Shown one piece after another: positions 37,536 through 59,856 of a DNA stretch of 64,000 bases. The stretch is from an uncultured Candidatus Saccharimonadales bacterium (lineage in GTDB: Bacteria > Patescibacteriota > Saccharimonadia > UBA4664 > SCTI01): assembly GCA_964632435.1 (NCBI GenBank), contig CAZWEJ010000001.1:1052-65051 (forward strand), written 5' to 3'. Each line of letters starts with the position of its first letter. The first letter of the stretch is position 1. The notes under the pieces are model-generated. The model was not told where the DNA came from, did no database searches, and saw only the letters and a list, made by a program, of their open reading frames with translations. Position numbers and translations under genes: made by a program.

Positions 37536-39617
37536 ATGGCACGAGATTATAGCTTAGAAAGAACTCGAAATATTGGCATCATCGCCCACATTGATGCTGG
37601 TAAAACTACTGTAACCGAGGGCATCCTCTATCGAACCGGACGCGTCCACAAGATTGGTGAAGTCCATGAAGGTGAGGCAACAATGGACTGGATGGAGCAA
37701 GAGCGCGAGCGAGGTATCACTATTACCTCTGCGGCTACTACTTGTTTCTGGAATGAGCACCGGATCAACATTATCGATACTCCGGGCCACATCGACTTTA
37801 CAGTTGAGGTCGAGCGCTCGTTGCGAGTTCTCGACGGTGCAGTAACCGTTTTCGACGGCAAGATGGGCGTGGAGCCACAGAGTGAAACCGTTTGGCGACA
37901 GGCTGACAAGTACGGCGTGCCTCGCATCTGCTTTATCAATAAGATCAACCAAACTGGTGGGGACTTCTACAAGAGCCTCGAAAGCATCCATGAGCGACTA
38001 AGCAAGCGTGCGTATGCGATTCACCTTCCGATCGGTTTCGAGCAGGAAATCAATGGAATTGTCGACCTTGTTGAGATGAAGGCTTACACCTACAAGAACT
38101 ACACCGATAAGACTCTAACTGAAACTGAAATTCCAGCCGATATGAAGGAAAAGGCTGAGCGATACCGAAACCATCTAATTGAAGCAGCGGTTGAAGCCGA
38201 TGATGCCATGATGGAAAAATATCTTGAAGGCAACGAACTCTCGATTGATGAGCTAAAAATGCTCATCCGCAAAAGCGTTCTTTCAGGTGAATTTTATGCT
38301 GTCTCTGGTGGCGATGGTCGCGGAGTTATAGTTGAGAAACTTCTTGATGCTGTTGTTGATTACCTTCCAAGCCCGCTTGATGTCCCGGCAGTAACTGGAA
38401 CTGATCCAAAGACTGGTGATACTATCGAGCGAAAAGCTAGCGATGAAGAGCCATTTTCAGCACTTGCCTTTAAGATTGCAACCGACCCATTCGTAGGTAA
38501 GCTTGCCTTCTTCCGAGTGTATTCAGGAACGATAAAATCAGGCTCCTATATTCTGAACTCAAGCACAGGCGAAAAAGAGCGTGTCGGGCGAATTCTTCGA
38601 ATGCACGCTAACTCACGAGAAGAAGTTCAAGAGGTGTTTGCAGGTGAAATTGCTGCCGCTGTTGGCCTCAAGGGCACTACTACAGGTAACACATTGAGTG
38701 AGCAGTCAAAGCCAATCATTCTTGAATCAATTACCTTCCCAGAGCCAGTTATCCAGATAGCAATCGAGCCTAAGACAAAAGCCGACCAGGAAAAGATGAG
38801 TATTGCGCTCCAGAGATTAGCCGAAGAAGATCCAACCTTCCGAGTTTCAACCAACCACGAGACGGGTCAAACCTTGATCGCCGGTATGGGTGAGCTTCAT
38901 CTCGACATCATCGTTGATCGCATGAAGCGCGAGTTTAAAGTTGAAGCCAACGTCGGTCGACCCCAAGTTGCATATCGAGAAACTATTCGAAAACCCGCTC
39001 AGGTCGAAGGAAAGTTTGTTCGACAGTCAGGTGGTCGTGGTCAGTATGGACACGTTTGGCTTGAGCTTACTCCTCAAGAGCCTGGTGCCGGGTTTGAATT
39101 CGAAAACGCCATTGTTGGTGGAGTTGTACCTAGAGAGTACATCAAGCCAGTTGAAGAGGGCGTCAAAGAAGCTATGAACAATGGAGTTCTTGCTGGTTAC
39201 CCAGTAGTTGACCTTAAGGCGAAACTTTACGATGGTTCATATCACGATGTTGACTCAAGCGAAATGGCCTTCAAGATTGCTGGTTCAATGGCACTTCAAG
39301 AGGGTGTTCGTAAGGGAGACCCAGCTTTACTAGAGCCTGTTATGAAGGTTGAAGTAACAACACCAGAGGAGTTCATGGGCGATGTCATCGGTGACCTAAA
39401 CAGTAAACGCGGTCGTGTTCAAGAGATGACCGATCGTGGTCAGGCCAAAGTTGTAAGCGCATTTGTGCCGTTAGCCGAGATGTTTGGGTACACCACTACC
39501 CTTCGATCAATGACTCAAGGTCGTGCAGCAAACTCAATGGAGTTTGACCACTATGCCGAAGTGCCACCAAATGTAGCTCAGGAGATTATCGGTAAACACG
39601 CTGCTGCAAAAGCTTAA
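37536..39617 (+). CDS. fusA: Elongation factor G
   Basis: GTPase motifs AHIDAGKTT and DTPGHIDF, domains II-V. Confidence 0.97.
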
Positions 39618-39643
39618 GACAAAAAGATATCCCAAATAACTAA

Positions 39644-39670
39644 ATCGGCCTTCACCGGCCGATTTTGTTA
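39644..39670 (+). terminator. Rho-independent terminator after fusA
   Basis: atcggcc-ttcacc-ggccgat stem followed by tttgtta; a TATACT -10-like hexamer follows. Confidence 0.65.
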
Positions 39671-39700
39671 TACTGACCTTGTCCTACAAAGGAGGCTTTT

Positions 39701-40033
39701 TTGATTACGCCCTTAGAGGAGTTCGACTGGGAAGAGATTTTTGCCGAGCTGGCTAGAAACCACCTGGTTTCACAAGATCAGGCCATTAGGCTCACATCTT
39801 CCAGGGCTACCTCAACTGGGAAAATCTATACGCTCTGCTGCTTTCATGACGAAAGAACTCCTTCGTTGGTGTTCTGGCCAAACTCGGGGTTCAAGTGCCA
39901 CGGGTGCGGCGAATGCGGGCGCAGCAAGCTGGACTTTCTCGAATGCCTTGGCATTTCCGAAAAAGAGATCGATCTAATGGTCGATTCCATCAACTCAAGG
40001 TCGGTCAATCAAAACCAACTCAGGCTTCTTTGA
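39701..40033 (+). CDS. Stand-alone CHC2-type (DnaG primase-like) zinc-finger protein, 110 aa
   Basis: TTG start with RBS AAAGGAGG. The motif CCFHDERTPSLVF...FKCHGCGECG matches the zf-CHC2 signature (CPFHxExTPSF...FxCFGCGxxG). No TOPRIM domain is attached. Confidence 0.6.
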   Translation: MITPLEEFDWEEIFAELARNHLVSQDQAIRLTSSRATSTGKIYTLCCFHDERTPSLVFWPNSGFKCHGCGECGRSKLDFLECLGISEKEIDLMVDSINSRSVNQNQLRLL

Positions 40034-40252
40034 ACCGCCTCTATTTAATTAGGGGCGGTTCCAAATTGATAACCCAACCTCAACCCTTTACAAAGCGTAA
40101 ATTACTCCTTATACTAGTAAAGTCCAAATCAGGGCGAATATTTTTATGCCCAAAAAATATTAATTAAAGTTTCATTTTAGATAGCTGACCCGTTCGGCCC
40201 GCCCTGAAAACAGGGTTAACAATCTGAAATGAAACAAATAAAAGGAGAACGA

Positions 40253-41428
40253 ATGGCCGAGTTTCAACGAACTAAGCCCCACGTTAACGTCGGTACCATG
40301 GGTCACGTCGACCACGGAAAGACCACGCTAACTGCTGCCATTACCGCTGTATTGGCAAAGAAGCTACCTAGCGATATCAACAAACCTATCGCTTACGACC
40401 AAATTGATAACGCTCCAGAAGAGAAGCAGCGTGGTATCACAATCGCTACATCTCACCAGGAGTATGAGTCCGAGAAGCGACACTATGCTCACGTCGACAT
40501 GCCAGGACACGCAGACTATGTTAAGAACATGATCACTGGTGCTGCTCAGGTTGACGGTGCTATTCTCGTAGTAAGCGCTGCTGACGGCCCAATGCCTCAG
40601 ACTCGTGAGCACATCCTTCTTGCAAAGCAAGTTGGTGTTCCTTACATCCTTGTCTACATGAACAAGATGGATATGGCCGATCCAGAGCTAGCAGAGCTCG
40701 TAGAAATGGAAGTTCGTGAGCTTCTTGCAAAGCAAGGCTTCGACGAGAACTGCCCAATTGTTAAGGGTTCAGCTCTTAAGGCTCTTGAAGGCGACGCAGC
40801 TGCAGAAGACTCAATCATGGAGCTTGTTAAAGCTATGGATGAGTCAATCCCAGAGCCAAAGCGTGAGATTGATAAGCCATTCATGATGGCAATCGAAGAT
40901 GTATTCTCAATTAAGGGACGTGGTACTGTTGCTACCGGTCGAATCGACCAAGGAAAGCTCGCAGTTAACGACGAAGTTGAGATCGTTGGTATCCGCCCTA
41001 CCAAGAAAACCGTTGTAACCGGTGTTGAGATGTTCAAGAAGCTTCTTCCTGACGCTCAAGCAGGTGACAACGTTGGTGCACTTCTCCGTGGTATTGAGCG
41101 AACCGACATCGAGCGCGGTCAGGTTTTGGCCAAGCCAGGTTCAATTACTCCTCACACTGAGTTTGATGCCGAAGTATACGTTTTGAACAAAGAAGAGGGT
41201 GGTCGACACACTCCATTCTTCAAGGGCTACAAGCCTCAGTTCTACATCCGAACAACCGATGTTACCGGAGAGATCCAGTTTGAAGGTGAGATGGTTATGC
41301 CGGGTGATAACGTTCAGATGAAGGTTAAATTGATTGCTCCTATCGCCATGGAAGAAGGTCTCCGATTCGCTATCCGCGAAGGTGGACGAACCGTTGGCGC
41401 AGGTGTTGTCACAAAGATTACCAAGTAA
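40253..41428 (+). CDS. tuf: Elongation factor Tu
   Basis: ATG at 40253 preceded by AAAAGGAGAA; [17 protein letters not shown] and NKMD motifs. Confidence 0.97.
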
Positions 41429-41439
41429 CATAGATTTCA

Positions 41440-41763
41440 ATGGCTGAAAAAGACGCACCTAAACAACGAATCCGAATTAGATTAAAGGCTTACGATAACA
41501 AGGTTATCGATCAGTCGGCTAAGCAGATCCTAGATACTGCTACACGTACCGGCGCAAAGGTAGCGGGGCCAATCCCGCTGCCTACAGATCGAAATACCAC
41601 CACTGTTATTAAGAGCCCTCACATCTTTAAAAAGTCTCGAGAACAGTTCGAGATGCGGGTTCATAAGCGGCTGATTGATATCACCGAGCCGACAGCAAAA
41701 ACTGTCGACTCGCTGATGAATCTCAATCTTCCAGCTGGCGTCGACATCGAAATCAAAATGTAA
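41440..41763 (+). CDS. rpsJ: 30S ribosomal protein S10
   Basis: Conserved S10 sequence (IRIRLKAYD...). Confidence 0.97.
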
Positions 41764-41774
41764 CACTAGAAACT

Positions 41775-41794
41775 GCCCCGAAAGGGGCGTTTTT
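41775..41794 (+). terminator. Rho-independent terminator after rpsJ
   Basis: gcccc-gaaa-ggggc stem followed by gttttt. Confidence 0.7.
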
Positions 41795-41822
41795 AGTATA
41801 AAAGTCGTGTATAATTAACCAC

Positions 41823-42158
41823 ATGGTTAAACGAACAGATTTAAACACAGTTTTTCGATGTATATCCGATCCAACCCGGAGGCACATACTTGAGCATCTC
41901 TCCGAGATGGCGAGGCCGATGAGCGTGTTGGAGCTCGCGGAACCTCACAATATGAGCCTCCCCGCTGTGTCCAAGCATCTTCGCTATCTTGAGAAGGCCG
42001 GGCTTGTGAAAAGGACCGTCAAAGGTCGTGTTCATTCTTTCGAAATTATTCAGGAGCCTCTCAAGATGGCAGAGGCGTGGGTCGTATATTACCTGCAGTG
42101 TTGGAATAAGCAGCTTGATGTTATAGAGAGTACAAAAAAGGAAAGCAGCATCTTCTAA
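41823..42158 (+). CDS. ArsR/SmtB-family winged-helix transcriptional regulator
   Basis: HTH region ...TRRHILEHLSE..MSVLELAEPHNMSLPAVSKHLRYLEKAGLVKR; a TATAAT box lies just upstream. Confidence 0.8.
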   Translation: MVKRTDLNTVFRCISDPTRRHILEHLSEMARPMSVLELAEPHNMSLPAVSKHLRYLEKAGLVKRTVKGRVHSFEIIQEPLKMAEAWVVYYLQCWNKQLDVIESTKKESSIF

Positions 42159-42173
42159 CTTGTTATGGTTGCG

Positions 42174-42196
42174 TTTTGGCCTCGGTAAAGCCAAAA
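42174..42196 (+). promoter_or_regulatory. Perfect 7-bp inverted repeat TTTTGGC-N9-GCCAAAA between the ArsR gene and the downstream cassette (candidate operator)
   Basis: Not followed by a T-run, so it is unlikely to be a terminator. Confidence 0.3.
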
Positions 42197-42222
42197 TGAT
42201 ATCAACAAAGGGGTAGAAGTAG

Positions 42223-42726
42223 ATGGATTTTCAGGAAGCGATCATTTTTGTAAGTGCAGTCATTATTGTTGTGGCTGCTGGGGTTGTCCTTGGTGCGGTT
42301 ATACGGGGCAGGAGCATCAAGCAATCAGAGAAGGTTGGCTTAATTCAACAGCGCAAAGCGGAGTTATATTCGGAAATTATTGGCGCCCTCGACACAATAG
42401 TTGAAGACAATGATCAAAAAAAACAGTGGTTTATCCACCGATACTACCAAGCTCTAGTCTATGCGCCCGACAATGTGATTGCTTCCATTAATAGGTATCT
42501 TGATGGTGTTACAGCAATAGGAGCGGATCTCTCGCCAGACAAGATAATGGAGCTTCGCGGTAAAGCCGTAAGGTCAATGAGAGCAGATATCCAGGGATAC
42601 CTGAATGCTAAAACACGGCTTCCACTCCCTGAACTTTATCGAATAGAGGTTAAGGCGCCAGCACATCCGGCTCTAAAAGAAGATTCGAAAAAGAGTAAAC
42701 AAAAACCCGTTGCTCAGGAAAAATAG
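42223..42726 (+). CDS. Membrane-anchored hypothetical protein (N-terminal TM, about 140-aa soluble domain)
   Basis: TM helix AIIFVSAVIIVVAAGVVLGAVI; RBS AAAGGGG upstream. Confidence 0.5.
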   Translation: MDFQEAIIFVSAVIIVVAAGVVLGAVIRGRSIKQSEKVGLIQQRKAELYSEIIGALDTIVEDNDQKKQWFIHRYYQALVYAPDNVIASINRYLDGVTAIGADLSPDKIMELRGKAVRSMRADIQGYLNAKTRLPLPELYRIEVKAPAHPALKEDSKKSKQKPVAQEK

Positions 42727-42784
42727 TTTGCACCAGGTAAGCTTAAGAGGTATATTCAAATCAAAACCATAAAAAGAGGGAAAA

Positions 42785-42904
42785 ATGGCGGTAAAAAAAT
42801 GCACCAACAAAAACTGTAATGCGAATGTAAAGGTTTGCAAGGACAAAAGCTGTAGCGCTAAAGGCCCACACGGTCATTGTTCAAACGGGCATAAAGTAAA
42901 GTAG
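42785..42904 (+). CDS. 39-aa Cys/His-rich peptide (MAVKKCTNKNCNANVKVCKDKSCSAKGPHGHCSNGHKVK)
   Basis: My own translation; RBS AGAGGG 5 nt upstream; two CxxxxC pairs plus HGHC; below the 60-aa cut-off of the ORF track. Confidence 0.4.
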   Translation: MAVKKCTNKNCNANVKVCKDKSCSAKGPHGHCSNGHKVK

Positions 42905-42911
42905 GCCTCCT

Positions 42912-43373
42912 TTGGAAAAGCGAAAGGTCAAACGACCGGCAGGCTCGACGCGACAACAGATTGTAAAGAGATACAACTCTCGGGCTTGGTATCAGCTGCC
43001 TGATTGGGCTCAACAGTTTGTTGTTAGTGCCGCTCCTTGGTTCACTGGTCTGATCGTGGCTGTCTTGACGCCTGCAGCGGCACTTGCTCTGGTATTAGGG
43101 TTCCACTCGTTACCCCTTGAAATTATTGGGGTACCTGGGACTGAGAATGATTTTGGCTTAGCTGCATTTATTCTATTAGTAAAAGTTGCTCTACTAGCGC
43201 TAGCTCTAAAGCCCCTTTACAGGAGGCAAGCGAGGGGTTGGACTTACTTAATTTTGGCATCATTTGTCCATTTGCTTCACAGTATATGGTTGCAGCACCC
43301 CGTTTCGGGAACACTTATTTGTTTAGGGACTCTATATCTGTATAGCCAGGTACGTCGCTGGTACACGCAGTAG
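42912..43373 (+). CDS. Multi-TM membrane protein, paralog 1 of a tandem pair
   Basis: Shares the YQLP...PW... and GW motifs and overall TM topology with the next gene. Confidence 0.55.
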   Translation: MEKRKVKRPAGSTRQQIVKRYNSRAWYQLPDWAQQFVVSAAPWFTGLIVAVLTPAAALALVLGFHSLPLEIIGVPGTENDFGLAAFILLVKVALLALALKPLYRRQARGWTYLILASFVHLLHSIWLQHPVSGTLICLGTLYLYSQVRRWYTQ

Positions 43374-43430
43374 TCTTGCAGGTAAAAAGCATAAGCGGTA
43401 TACTTCGCTTAAGTAATAGAAGGATGCCAA

Positions 43431-43880
43431 ATGGCCACCTCAAACCCCTTAAATAGTATAGTAAGCTCTCTTGAGCCATATTTCACAACAAAATCGCCCT
43501 ATCAGCTGCCGAAGAACATCAGAGAGTTTTTAGTAAAATACATACCTTGGATTAATGTTGTCATCCTGGTAATACTGGCTCCAGGAATTTTGCTCGCCCT
43601 TGGCATAGGAACTGCAACTCTACCATTTAGTGGAATTGCAGGCGTCGACTCCGCAACAGGGTTAACCATCACCCTCCTTGCGCTTGTAATACAAGTTGTA
43701 TTGATGATCGCAGCGCTACCTGGTTTGTTCAACCGTAAAATCAGTGGTTGGAATCTTTCATTTTATGCTGTCATATTCAATCTTGCTTATAGCCTACTCA
43801 ATTTCCAGATTCTAAGTGGGCTTCTTGGGGCTTTGATCGGAGCTTACGTTCTATTCCAGATAAAGTCTTATTACAAATAG
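43431..43880 (+). CDS. Multi-TM membrane protein, paralog 2 of a tandem pair
   Basis: Clear collinear similarity to 42912-43373 (YQLP, PW, LP..I.GV, GW, N...N.Q.LSG). Confidence 0.55.
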   Translation: MATSNPLNSIVSSLEPYFTTKSPYQLPKNIREFLVKYIPWINVVILVILAPGILLALGIGTATLPFSGIAGVDSATGLTITLLALVIQVVLMIAALPGLFNRKISGWNLSFYAVIFNLAYSLLNFQILSGLLGALIGAYVLFQIKSYYK

Positions 43881-43884
43881 CCTA

Positions 43885-44130
43885 ATGGCCAAGAAAAACG
43901 CTACAACCGAATATGATAGTGTTTATTTCTTAAAAATTTTAATCTATCTGATTCTTGGAACAGTTTGGCTCTCAAATGGAGAAAGTCGAACCCTGCCAGT
44001 AGGCTTAATAGTGGGTATTGTGGCTGTTCAGCACGAAAAATTACAAATTGACCGAAAAATTGAGTACGCACTATTACTAATTGGAACTATTTTAGGCCTG
44101 GTAGGCATTGGTTTAACAATAAATTTGTAG
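43885..44130 (+). CDS. Small 2-TM membrane protein
   Basis: Two hydrophobic helices; tightly spaced after the paralog pair. Confidence 0.45.
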   Translation: MAKKNATTEYDSVYFLKILIYLILGTVWLSNGESRTLPVGLIVGIVAVQHEKLQIDRKIEYALLLIGTILGLVGIGLTINL

Positions 44131-44155
44131 CCGCAACATAATCAATTTCTCTATC

Positions 44156-44172
44156 TGTTGACAGATGTGTCA
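44156..44172 (+). promoter_or_regulatory. Promoter for rplC and downstream genes, with a palindromic TTGACA-gatg-TGTCAA element overlapping the -35
   Basis: TTGACA -35, 17-bp spacer, TTATAT -10; the palindrome is the reverse complement of the element at 28877-28893. Confidence 0.45.
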
Positions 44173-44299
44173 AAACTCTGTTATATTTACTTGGTAACTT
44201 TTGCTCAATTTAGAGCTTAGAACTAGGAGTTGATCTGGTCCGTGAGCCGCGGATACCGCTCGAATCCTAGAATTTGTTTTGTTTAATATAAGGAGTGGC

Positions 44300-58134: not shown

Positions 58135-58419
58135 CTCGACCTAAGACATTAATAAAATTAATAGCTTGGGTTGAGTGACAAAGTGAGTGAGATGCAGGTG
58201 GGTGAGGCACGCTAGATGCCTCACCCTCCCTTTCCGCTAGATACCTGCATTCGGAAAAGCTGCTCCATCGGTAAAGATGCGTAGTGAATCCGACCACGCT
58301 ACGCGCCCGATTGGCGGCACATAGGCCGCGCTAAAGCTGGAGAGCCTTGAAGTTTTACGGGGCAACCTCCGTGTCGCCCCGATTTGTCCCCCCCGTGCCA
58401 TTCTTGGCGCGAGCTTGTT

Positions 58420-59694
58420 TTACTTCTTGGTCTTCGAACGCCGACGAGCGCCCTTGGTTCCGGAGCGCTCACCCTTGGCGTTAACGCCCACGTTGCCGCG
58501 ACGGTTACGCCTCGGGTCGTCCGGACCCTGCGGGTTAGCCTTACCGATCCTGGGGCCGGCTCCAGGAATCTTCGGGGTGTTAGGCTCCTTCGACTTCTTG
58601 GCGGCCTTGGAGCCACCAGCCTTTCCGCGGTTGCGCTGATCGACCTGCTTGACCCGATTACTGCTTGCGCGAGCATCGCGGTCGAGCTTGCTCAGAACCA
58701 TCATGAGCTTGCTGTCCAGCTTGAGGTTCCCCCTCAGAATGCGCAGCGCATGGTGAATATCACGAACGTTCTGTCGGGTCTTCAGGATCTCCTCCGCCAG
58801 ATTCTCAATCGGCTGAGTCATCAGCATCATGAGGTACGAGCCGGGGTCGATCTCCTTGATCCCCTCGCTGAAGGCGTTGATCCGCCTCTGGCGAGTGGCT
58901 TCGATCTCCGAGATCATCTCGGAGATCTTCTGCTGAGCCGCCGCCCTCTTGCTGAGGCTCTGAAGAGCGATGATCATCGAGGCGTTGGGCCGAAGCTGCG
59001 CCTTCATGATCCGCACGGCGTTCAGCTCGCCGTAGACCGAGTTGCCCTCCTTCAGAAGCGTCTCGATGAGCTTATCGAGAGGCTCATTGAAGATCCGATG
59101 GAGGTACGTGCCCTCATCGATCAGATGGAGGTCATCCATGAACTCCTCCCGAAGGGTATCGATGCGACGCTGGAGGGCGGCCTTCTCGGACTCAGCCTTG
59201 GTGGTACCCTCATCGCACAGGCGCTTCAGCGTCTGCATGAAGTCGCTCTCATCCTCGAGCTGCTTCATAACCCCCAACATCGCTTCGGTGACCGTAATGC
59301 CACGCCTTCTGGCGTCGTACGTTGCGGTCTGCATGAGGGGGAAGTGGATCAGGTGGTAGAGCCGGGTGTCCTGCTTGATCAGACTCACGCCGTTGCCGTA
59401 CTTGGCAATCGCGTCCGTCTTGAGACGCTCGGCTTTCGCCGAGACCTCGTTGAGATCAACGCTGTCGCCCTCGACGTAGCCGGTCGAGAGATCCTCGACG
59501 CGGTGACGCCTGGGAGCGCTACCAGTAGTCGAGCGCTTGGGGCGACTCTTCCGCCCCTTCTGCCTGCGAGGCCGACGCGACCTGATCGCCTGCCCGAAAG
59601 CAGACATCAGTTCGTCGGTTGTCGCGACCCGATCGTCGGCCGGGGCCGGATCGGAGGTCTCCCCCTGGGGATTGACCTGGGGCGAAATCGCCAT
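58420..59694 (-). CDS. GC-rich foreign-looking gene: 424-aa protein with an internally duplicated helical domain and strongly basic Arg/Lys-rich N- and C-terminal tails (candidate nucleic-acid-binding protein)
   Basis: Minus-strand ORF with protein-like composition, whereas the plus-strand antisense ORF is L/R/G-rich. The start at 59694 is preferred because of the RBS GAGGTGA 4 nt upstream. Internal repeat: LIDEGTYLHRIFNEPLDKLIETLLK versus EIDPGSYLMMLMTQPIENLAEEILK. Local GC is about 60% against about 46% for the flanks. Confidence 0.55.
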   Translation of the reverse strand: MAISPQVNPQGETSDPAPADDRVATTDELMSAFGQAIRSRRPRRQKGRKSRPKRSTTGSAPRRHRVEDLSTGYVEGDSVDLNEVSAKAERLKTDAIAKYGNGVSLIKQDTRLYHLIHFPLMQTATYDARRRGITVTEAMLGVMKQLEDESDFMQTLKRLCDEGTTKAESEKAALQRRIDTLREEFMDDLHLIDEGTYLHRIFNEPLDKLIETLLKEGNSVYGELNAVRIMKAQLRPNASMIIALQSLSKRAAAQQKISEMISEIEATRQRRINAFSEGIKEIDPGSYLMMLMTQPIENLAEEILKTRQNVRDIHHALRILRGNLKLDSKLMMVLSKLDRDARASSNRVKQVDQRNRGKAGGSKAAKKSKEPNTPKIPGAGPRIGKANPQGPDDPRRNRRGNVGVNAKGERSGTKGARRRSKTKK

Positions 59695-59856
59695 GTTATC
59701 ACCTCGTTTGGGAAGAGCCATAACTTCTGACTCACTTTGTCAAAAAAACATCCGGATTGTTGCACCCGGAAGTTGCGCCAATATTAACATAACTATCTTT
59801 ATCTGTCAACCACCTTACGTCTGGCCACTAAAACATAACCGCTATATAATAATTTT

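Follow-up and report, generated by a model that had tools for sequence, protein, structure and literature searches.

The CHC2-type zinc-binding domain (ZBD; PF01807; PDB 1D0Q, 2AU3) is the N-terminal part of the bacterial primase DnaG, which also contains RNA-polymerase/TOPRIM and DnaB-binding domains. In T7 gp4, T4 gp61 and human Twinkle the ZBD is covalently joined to a primase and a helicase. The ZBD in DnaG and T7 gp4 contacts the template or the primer-template. Here we describe a free-standing domain of this type, encoded between fusA and tuf on a 64,000 nucleotide (nt) stretch of DNA, hereafter the window, from a Candidatus Saccharimonadales bacterium of the Candidate Phyla Radiation (CPR)/Patescibacteria. 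Unlike the ZBDs of T7 gp4, T4 gp61 and Twinkle, it would be tethered to the sliding clamp.

Compared with DnaG, the window protein lacks the RNA-polymerase/TOPRIM and DnaB-binding domains and is extended at its C-terminus by an additional helix and a tail that resembles clamp-binding peptides. No full-length primase is as near to it in sequence as other stand-alone proteins are. The window protein also resembles the phage ZBD-only proteins annotated as 'DNA primase', which are small, consist essentially of the primase zinc ribbon and are of unknown function. This phage set comprises PHROGs phrog_360, phrog_2304 and phrog_18097 as well as entries of approximately 86-110 amino acids in BFVD, for example A0A2R4ALN9 of Aeromonas phage AhSzq-1 and ORF8 of phiC31. 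The matches to these proteins are, however, restricted to the zinc-finger core (E 1e-4 to 1e-7), and no phage or plasmid record holds a full-length relative bearing the C-terminal motif.

Two described clamp-binding proteins, both small regulators of replication initiation, are also of relevance. Many members of the family described here end in a peptide of the QLxLx[LF]/QxxLF type that resembles the linear motif of Hda (QLSLPL), and the terminus that bears it is predicted to be flexible. YabA is a zinc-binding partner of DnaN and DnaA and has, as the window protein, approximately 110 amino acids and a zinc module. The folds are unrelated, Hda being an AAA+ protein and YabA a coiled coil with a different zinc domain. 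The tail of the window protein, QLRLL, is without the terminal Phe, and its clamp binding is predicted from sequence.

A primase-type zinc-binding domain without a primase

The product scores 29.4 bits against Pfam PF01807 (Zn_ribbon_DnaG / CHC2), above the gathering cut-off of 24.9 bits, with an E value of 7e-7 over residues 40-80. C46, H49, C66 and C69 are invariant in the family alignment (52 members) and align with the zinc ligands of PDB 1d0q, the ZBD of the Bacillus stearothermophilus primase, which is the best solved-structure match by sequence. The structure prediction has a predicted local distance difference test score (pLDDT) of 90, and 91-97 in the folded part; 80 of its residues superpose on 1d0q at 2.2 Å, and the protein thus has the primase ZBD fold. 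In brief, a complete ZBD spans approximately residues 1-85, followed by one helix and the flexible C-terminal peptide QLRLL. By score, ligands and fold, the product is a member of PF01807.

The product is not a DnaG primase, because it reaches just 25.2 bits against TIGR01391, the full-length DnaG equivalog with a cut-off of 283.6 bits, and because the catalytic and DnaB-binding domains are missing. A Pfam search gave no match beyond PF01807 even at E<=10, and so no DnaB-binding domain; nor did the Pfam and NCBIfam scans at E<=10 detect a YabA or Hda (AAA+) domain. A hidden Markov model (HMM) built from 31 full-length DnaGs matched only the ZBD part (positions ~14-77) in the six-frame translations of the window and of 15 family loci, in which we found no TOPRIM/RNA-polymerase-domain core or remnants of one. 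With 110 amino acids the product is too small to accommodate a TOPRIM domain, and it is incapable of primer synthesis by itself. No dnaG or dnaN is located within the window. It does encode dnaE and holB (the delta' subunit of the clamp loader), and therefore the host has a conventional clamp-dependent replisome.

An orthologue, 89% identical, is found in the same fusA-X-tuf position in the metagenome-assembled genome GCA_964423965.1 (loci L001/L002), and an identical copy of the window protein is encoded on the metagenome contig L015. The features of the gene, all on the forward strand of the window, are as follows.

39642-39665, +: fusA terminator stem-loop, bounding the cassette on its upstream side; stem of 9 bp, then TTTTGTT (-18.5 kcal/mol, z -6.5)
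39666-39674, +: candidate extended -10, TGtTATACT, for the zinc-finger gene, as read from the sequence; identical in L001
39691-39695, +: Shine-Dalgarno GGAGG, 5 nt 5' of the TTG; kept in L001
39701-40033, +: open reading frame (ORF) for the stand-alone DnaG-type CHC2 ZBD; 110 amino acids, TTG start; product contains CCFHDERTPSLVF...FKCHGCGECG
39836-39907, +: zinc knuckles; C46 at 39836-39838, H49 at 39845-39847, C66 at 39896-39898, C69 at 39905-39907
40016-40030, +: clamp-binding-motif-like pentapeptide QLRLL, residues 106-110; Q106 nearly invariant in the family
40032-40061, +: 12-bp GC-rich hairpin over the stop codon of the zinc-finger gene (-21.5 kcal/mol, z -5.4); kept in L001

The upstream stem-loop is located 3' of the fusA stop codon and is kept in L001, and it is missing in L095, L096 and L098, which have a different terminator of their own there. 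The TATACT box (39669-39674) is preceded by TG. Since no -35 box for the zinc-finger gene passed a consensus scan, we only infer that the extended -10 is its promoter. The best consensus promoter in the fusA-tuf gap, TTTACA-17-TATACT at 40087-40115, serves tuf and not the zinc-finger gene. The downstream hairpin has no U-tract; it bounds the cassette on that side and may serve to stabilise the RNA or as a weak terminator. A 12-nt direct repeat, AGGCTT(T/C)TTTGA at 39693-39704 and 40022-40033, flanks the ORF, with one copy exactly at the start codon and the other exactly at the stop codon. This is probably a coincidence; by a rough estimate approximately 0.4 such pairs would arise by chance in the 581-nt region.

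The ORFs of the window and L001 are colinear and differ at 32 nt, distributed as 6/4/22 over the three codon positions. The 12 non-synonymous differences correspond to a ratio of non-synonymous to synonymous substitution rates (dN/dS) of 0.14 (binomial p 8.7e-7), and promoter, ribosome binding site and both hairpins are kept. The zinc-finger gene is thus real, expressed-looking and under purifying selection. A first-pass annotation, made from the letters of the window, had described the 110 amino acid ORF at 39701-40033 with its TTG start and CHC2 motif, the terminator on the fusA side, the TATACT box, the ribosome binding site and the trailing GC hairpin. All of these are present, and the signals are kept in L001. 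Its match to zf-CHC2, for which it had proposed a profile check, is borne out by the PF01807 score, and the DnaG HMM and Pfam agree with its statement that there is no TOPRIM or helicase-interaction region. It had also pointed out that a dnaG pseudogene with TOPRIM remnants downstream would speak against its reading; we looked for such remnants and found none.

The family and its C-terminal tail

A phmmer search, exhaustive over 1.84 billion representatives, yielded 282 matches at E<=1e-3, nearly all of them stand-alone proteins of approximately 70-170 amino acids. Among the 150 best matches, 115 have 170 or fewer amino acids and a handful are primase-sized. The nearest relatives of the window protein are other stand-alone small proteins, not the ZBDs of full-length primases, and the family clusters are tiny and fast-evolving. 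Isolated CHC2 fingers had been called unusual in the first-pass annotation; with approximately 280 mostly short relatives, and with ZBD-only phage proteins in existence, this does not hold.

In the alignment of 52 sequences C46, H49, S55, C66, G68 and C69 are invariant, and G40, E51, G73 and Q106 are nearly so. The consensus reads W...L..LG.....RS.G....LC.FH.ERTPSL..WP.G.F.C.GCG..G...DF, then a variable linker, then P.QL.LPF. This appears to be an undescribed family of ZBD-only proteins of approximately 100-140 amino acids. Its full-length architecture is not described by any Pfam, NCBIfam, PHROG or PADLOC model, and in the literature library searched we found no paper linking CHC2 zinc fingers with clamp-binding motifs, or with Patescibacteria/Saccharibacteria. 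What is new is the undescribed combination of a known domain with a known motif in a free-standing protein.

The named family members are few, and all of them are Candidatus Saccharimonadales. The family probably reaches beyond this order, because several family loci have 59-67% GC and one of these is accompanied by ribosomal proteins just 42-55% identical to those of the window. A scan of metagenomes with the pattern C[VCI]FHxERTP mainly gave ordinary 600 amino acid DnaGs of soil bacteria, approximately 7 of 80 loci belonging to the family. A second architecture was observed among the CHC2 matches, in proteins of 170-255 amino acids that are extended at the N-terminus and have their ZBD at the extreme C-terminus (...AIDF.MK....F.EA...). 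These proteins (P0011, P0069, P0071, P0073, P0085, P0109, P0119, P0122, P0124, P0137 and P0138) have no clamp-binding-like tail and look like a distinct unannotated subfamily.

The C-termini of the family were compared with literature-derived clamp-binding patterns (QxxLF, QLxLx[LF] and Q[LMI]x[LMI][FL]) over the last 15 residues, with 500 shuffles as control. A pattern is present in 28 of the 104 members with this architecture; the shuffled tails gave a mean of 0.69 and a maximum of 4, so that the motif is enriched approximately 40-fold. It is also concentrated in the tail, with only three matches elsewhere in these 104 proteins, and none of the 35 longer proteins has it (0/35). A slightly broader definition gave 40 of 115 members against 1.25 in shuffles. 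Anchored on the Gln, the profile reads P(-2)-x-Q-L-x-L-[F/P]-F, and the chain usually ends 0-6 residues further on. Experimentally validated clamp-binding motifs are QL[S/D]LF or QxxLF, and a tight-binding peptide of Hda is QLSLPL (PMC12309361); the QLxLPF of the family is one position away from the latter. The window pentapeptide QLRLL fits the consensus at four of five positions, with Leu instead of Phe, and P0111, the other member located between fusA and tuf, ends in QIRLF, a canonical QxxLF. The host DnaE carries a related internal motif, QIDIF, at residue 940, which is the expected place. The last 10 residues of the window model have a mean pLDDT of 59 and are its sole low-confidence part; the tail is therefore taken to be flexible, as expected for a short linear motif. 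We also considered whether '...LPF' could be an SSB-tail-like motif (DDDIPF). This was ruled out, as the family tails lack acidic character and further residues often follow the Phe.

The conserved tail motif, on which the first-pass annotation had not remarked, points to the sliding clamp as the putative partner. We suggest, giving the proposal a little less than even credence, that the product is a clamp-tethered primase-type zinc ribbon, a replication accessory factor acting at primed DNA. In this model the QLRLL tail would dock in the hydrophobic cleft of the DnaN clamp, docking would place the ZBD at primed sites on DNA, and the ZBD placed there would influence priming, the passing on of primers or the access and traffic of other clamp partners. 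The product is probably neither a primase nor a translation regulator.

Several observations weigh against this proposal. The DNA-binding role of the ZBD would be an extrapolation from DnaG and T7 gp4. The literature patterns are matched by just approximately a quarter to a third of the family, the remaining members having near-variants (QLRLPG, QLELWP) or nothing recognisable. There is no conserved neighbouring replication gene, and the patchy distribution described below means that the function is dispensable at the fusA-tuf locus. In addition, QLRLL has Leu at the consensus Phe position, which matters for affinity in E. coli (PMC12309361).

Should the tail bind DnaN, the protein would be a new sliding-clamp client, a primase-type template/primer-binding module without a catalytic domain. 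It would then help to understand how primers pass from primase to clamp and polymerase in bacteria without the chi/psi pathway of E. coli; these include the reduced-genome CPR/Patescibacteria, the replication of which is essentially unstudied. More speculatively still, the proteins could constitute an unrecognised family and a new class of clamp client that moves between uncultivated bacteria and phages as a one-gene cassette, entering gaps of highly transcribed operons. On this more loosely held view such a client would act at primer-template junctions, by primer capture or hand-off, or by competition with polymerases.

Genomic contexts and alternative explanations

Relatives were sampled at graded distance through EF-Tu. 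The contents of their fusA-tuf gaps are given below, with EF-Tu identity to the window.

L095-L097, 98%: gap of 245 bp, no gene
L098, 94%: gap of 196 bp, no gene
L099, 91%: gap (L099 1886-5000) with two HAD hydrolases and an APH kinase
L102, 89%: gap (L102 2760-5000) with two small ORFs and a dihydroorotate dehydrogenase
L004/L005, 88%: gap (L004 7036-9870) with P0111, a 34%-identical family member, and three unrelated ORFs

The gap of the window spans 39618-40252. Compared with L095 and L098 it contains an insertion of approximately 400 bp that starts just past the fusA stop codon and ends shortly ahead of the conserved promoter and leader of tuf. The gene is thus part of a self-contained accessory cassette of approximately 400 bp (terminator-proximal candidate promoter, ribosome binding site, ORF and trailing hairpin) in a variable gap of the str operon, and its absence from this gap in a relative is not the same as absence from the genome. 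Across Saccharimonadales the fusA-tuf gap is a variable islet.

The nucleotide identities of fusA among the window, L001 and L095 (0.82, 0.817 and 0.845) make the three about equidistant. The window and L001 share 90% identity in the cassette, 82% in fusA and 72-76% in the downstream hypothetical genes. In tuf the window is closer to L001 (94%) than to L095 (90%); for fusA, by contrast, the highest identity is that between L001 and L095. Either a loss in L095 or a recombination that exchanged the cassette laterally may account for these data. The block of zinc-finger gene, tuf leader, tuf and rpsJ (39600-41750) shows 89-97% DNA identity when the window is compared with L001, against approximately 80% (fusA) and 71-76% (ArsR and hypothetical ORFs) on its flanks, and this block may be a recombination tract.

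Family members elsewhere are found in the following contexts.

L008: between malic enzyme and PilB
L009: adjoining the S10 operon
L010: among cell-wall genes and NrdR
L016: beside atpG and atpA
L006 (P0029): on a phage-like 70-kb contig with small unannotated ORFs and a D12 methyltransferase
L007 (8450-11096) and L018 (10560-13069); P0155: near genes for a PIN protein and an AAA_25 protein

No conserved partner gene was found across the contexts compared. Judged from these neighbourhoods, the fusA-tuf position is incidental and carries no functional linkage, because the gap is empty or holds other genes in the relatives and because family members are found in unrelated contexts; a functional linkage to fusA/tuf was ruled out on the EF-Tu-graded comparison. 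In the L007/L018 lineage the zinc-finger gene is divergent from a small operon that includes the AAA_25 gene, with the PIN-domain gene nearby. The AAA_25 protein has weak PHROG matches to DnaB-like helicases and phage primase-helicases, and the operon is a candidate for the replication module of an integrated element.

More specific identities were also considered for the cassette. A transposon-like insertion was rejected, as there is no target-site duplication and there are no terminal inverted repeats. Membership of a known phage or plasmid family was ruled out, since no full-length relative is found in the phage and plasmid records searched. The first-pass annotation had entertained an anti-phage decoy, an idea that has no support: PADLOC gave domain-level matches of 17-32 bits, covering the zinc finger only, to those parts of DRT proteins (550 and 2280 positions) that resemble DnaG, and there are no defence partner genes at the locus. 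A known anti-phage defence system was rejected on the same grounds.

An origin in a phage or integrative element is an unlikely explanation, yet one with a number of observations in its favour. The protein would then be a clamp-hijacking or replication-interference factor, an adaptor of ZBD and clamp motif that recruits or blocks the host clamp at the element's own primers, and the chromosomal copy would be a stray or domesticated one spread by recombination. Presence in the window and L001 and absence from L095-L097 and L098, which are approximately equidistant sisters, is in line with this, and the higher identity of the cassette (90%) than of fusA (82%) and the downstream hypothetical genes (72-76%) is compatible with lateral exchange. 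So are the phage-like contig of P0029 with its D12 methyltransferase, the PIN and AAA_25 genes (the latter with weak DnaB-like/primase-helicase PHROG matches) adjoining P0155 and L018, the existence of short ZBD-only phage proteins and the tiny, fast-evolving family clusters. However, no integrase, transposase, target-site duplication or terminal inverted repeat flanks the cassette, and the members that could be placed are mostly found in ordinary chromosomal neighbourhoods. A tblastn search of 50,697 phage and 72,556 plasmid records gave no full-length family member, PHROGs gave zinc-finger-core matches only, and the four weak matches in IMG/VR are all without this architecture. The mechanism overlaps with that of the clamp-tethered accessory factor that we favour, from which this explanation differs mainly in origin and beneficiary. 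A split primase, also among the ideas of the first-pass annotation, in which the product would serve as trans-acting ZBD subunit for a DnaG, TOPRIM or PrimPol-type primase without a ZBD of its own, is distinctly improbable. DnaG ZBDs can act in trans on a neighbouring catalytic domain, the entire ZBD is kept here beyond the zinc knuckle (80 residues on 1d0q at 2.2 Å), and in L007 and L018 the gene adjoins that of the DnaB-like AAA_25 protein. Nevertheless, no primase core is adjacent in approximately 10 contexts, a clamp-binding tail is not known from primase subunits, and the gene is missing at the same site in close relatives, where a copy elsewhere in the genome is possible. With stand-alone small proteins as nearest relatives, the gene is also not a recent split of the host dnaG.

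A role of the product in regulating the str/tuf operon or translation by binding nucleic acids we consider very unlikely. The first-pass annotation had named a DNA- or RNA-binding regulator as one possibility for the locus, and the neighbourhoods in relatives weaken the idea. It draws on the location inside the str operon, directly 5' of the promoter of tuf and of its conserved structured leader, on the 34%-identical member that another Saccharimonadales lineage has between its fusA and tuf, and on the member that abuts the S10 operon. Yet relatives without the gene have an equally conserved tuf promoter and leader, other relatives have an empty gap or one with HAD, APH or dihydroorotate dehydrogenase genes, and further family members are located by malic enzyme/PilB, atp, cell-wall or phage-like genes; nearness to ribosomal operons is moreover expected by chance in 1-Mb genomes. 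Least credible of all is a non-functional remnant, either a decaying dnaG fragment or a spurious ORF. The ORF is indeed short, starts with TTG and has a Pfam score just modestly over the threshold, but purifying selection (dN/dS 0.14, p 8.7e-7), the conservation of all four zinc ligands and of the expression signals, and a model with pLDDT 90 speak against decay, and the entire family has the same architecture. For a pseudogenised dnaG in particular, the lack of TOPRIM remnants, the purifying selection and the small proteins as nearest relatives rule it out.

Other features of the window

Two ORFs of approximately 440 codons, at 58384-59730 (+) and 58420-59721 (-), fully overlap on opposite strands, and neither product matches Pfam.

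Within 40087-40252, the tuf gene has a near-consensus promoter and a structured 5' leader of approximately 135 nt, the leader having a minimum free energy of -35.2 kcal/mol (z -4.2). L001, L095 and L096 share this leader at 95-100% identity and L098 has largely kept it, although synonymous sites in the neighbouring fusA are saturated. The leader matches no Rfam family and could be a lineage-specific regulatory leader.

The S10 operon of the window is split between rpsJ and rplC (41764-44278) by an ArsR-type helix-turn-helix gene at 41823-42158 and four small hydrophobic unannotated ORFs. Like the fusA-tuf gap, the rpsJ-rplC gap of Saccharimonadales is a hot spot where accessory genes come and go, and this turnover helps to interpret 'odd' genes inside their ribosomal operons. 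At the same site, L004, L098 and L102 encode RarA/MgsA, and L099 encodes a reverse transcriptase (RVT_1).
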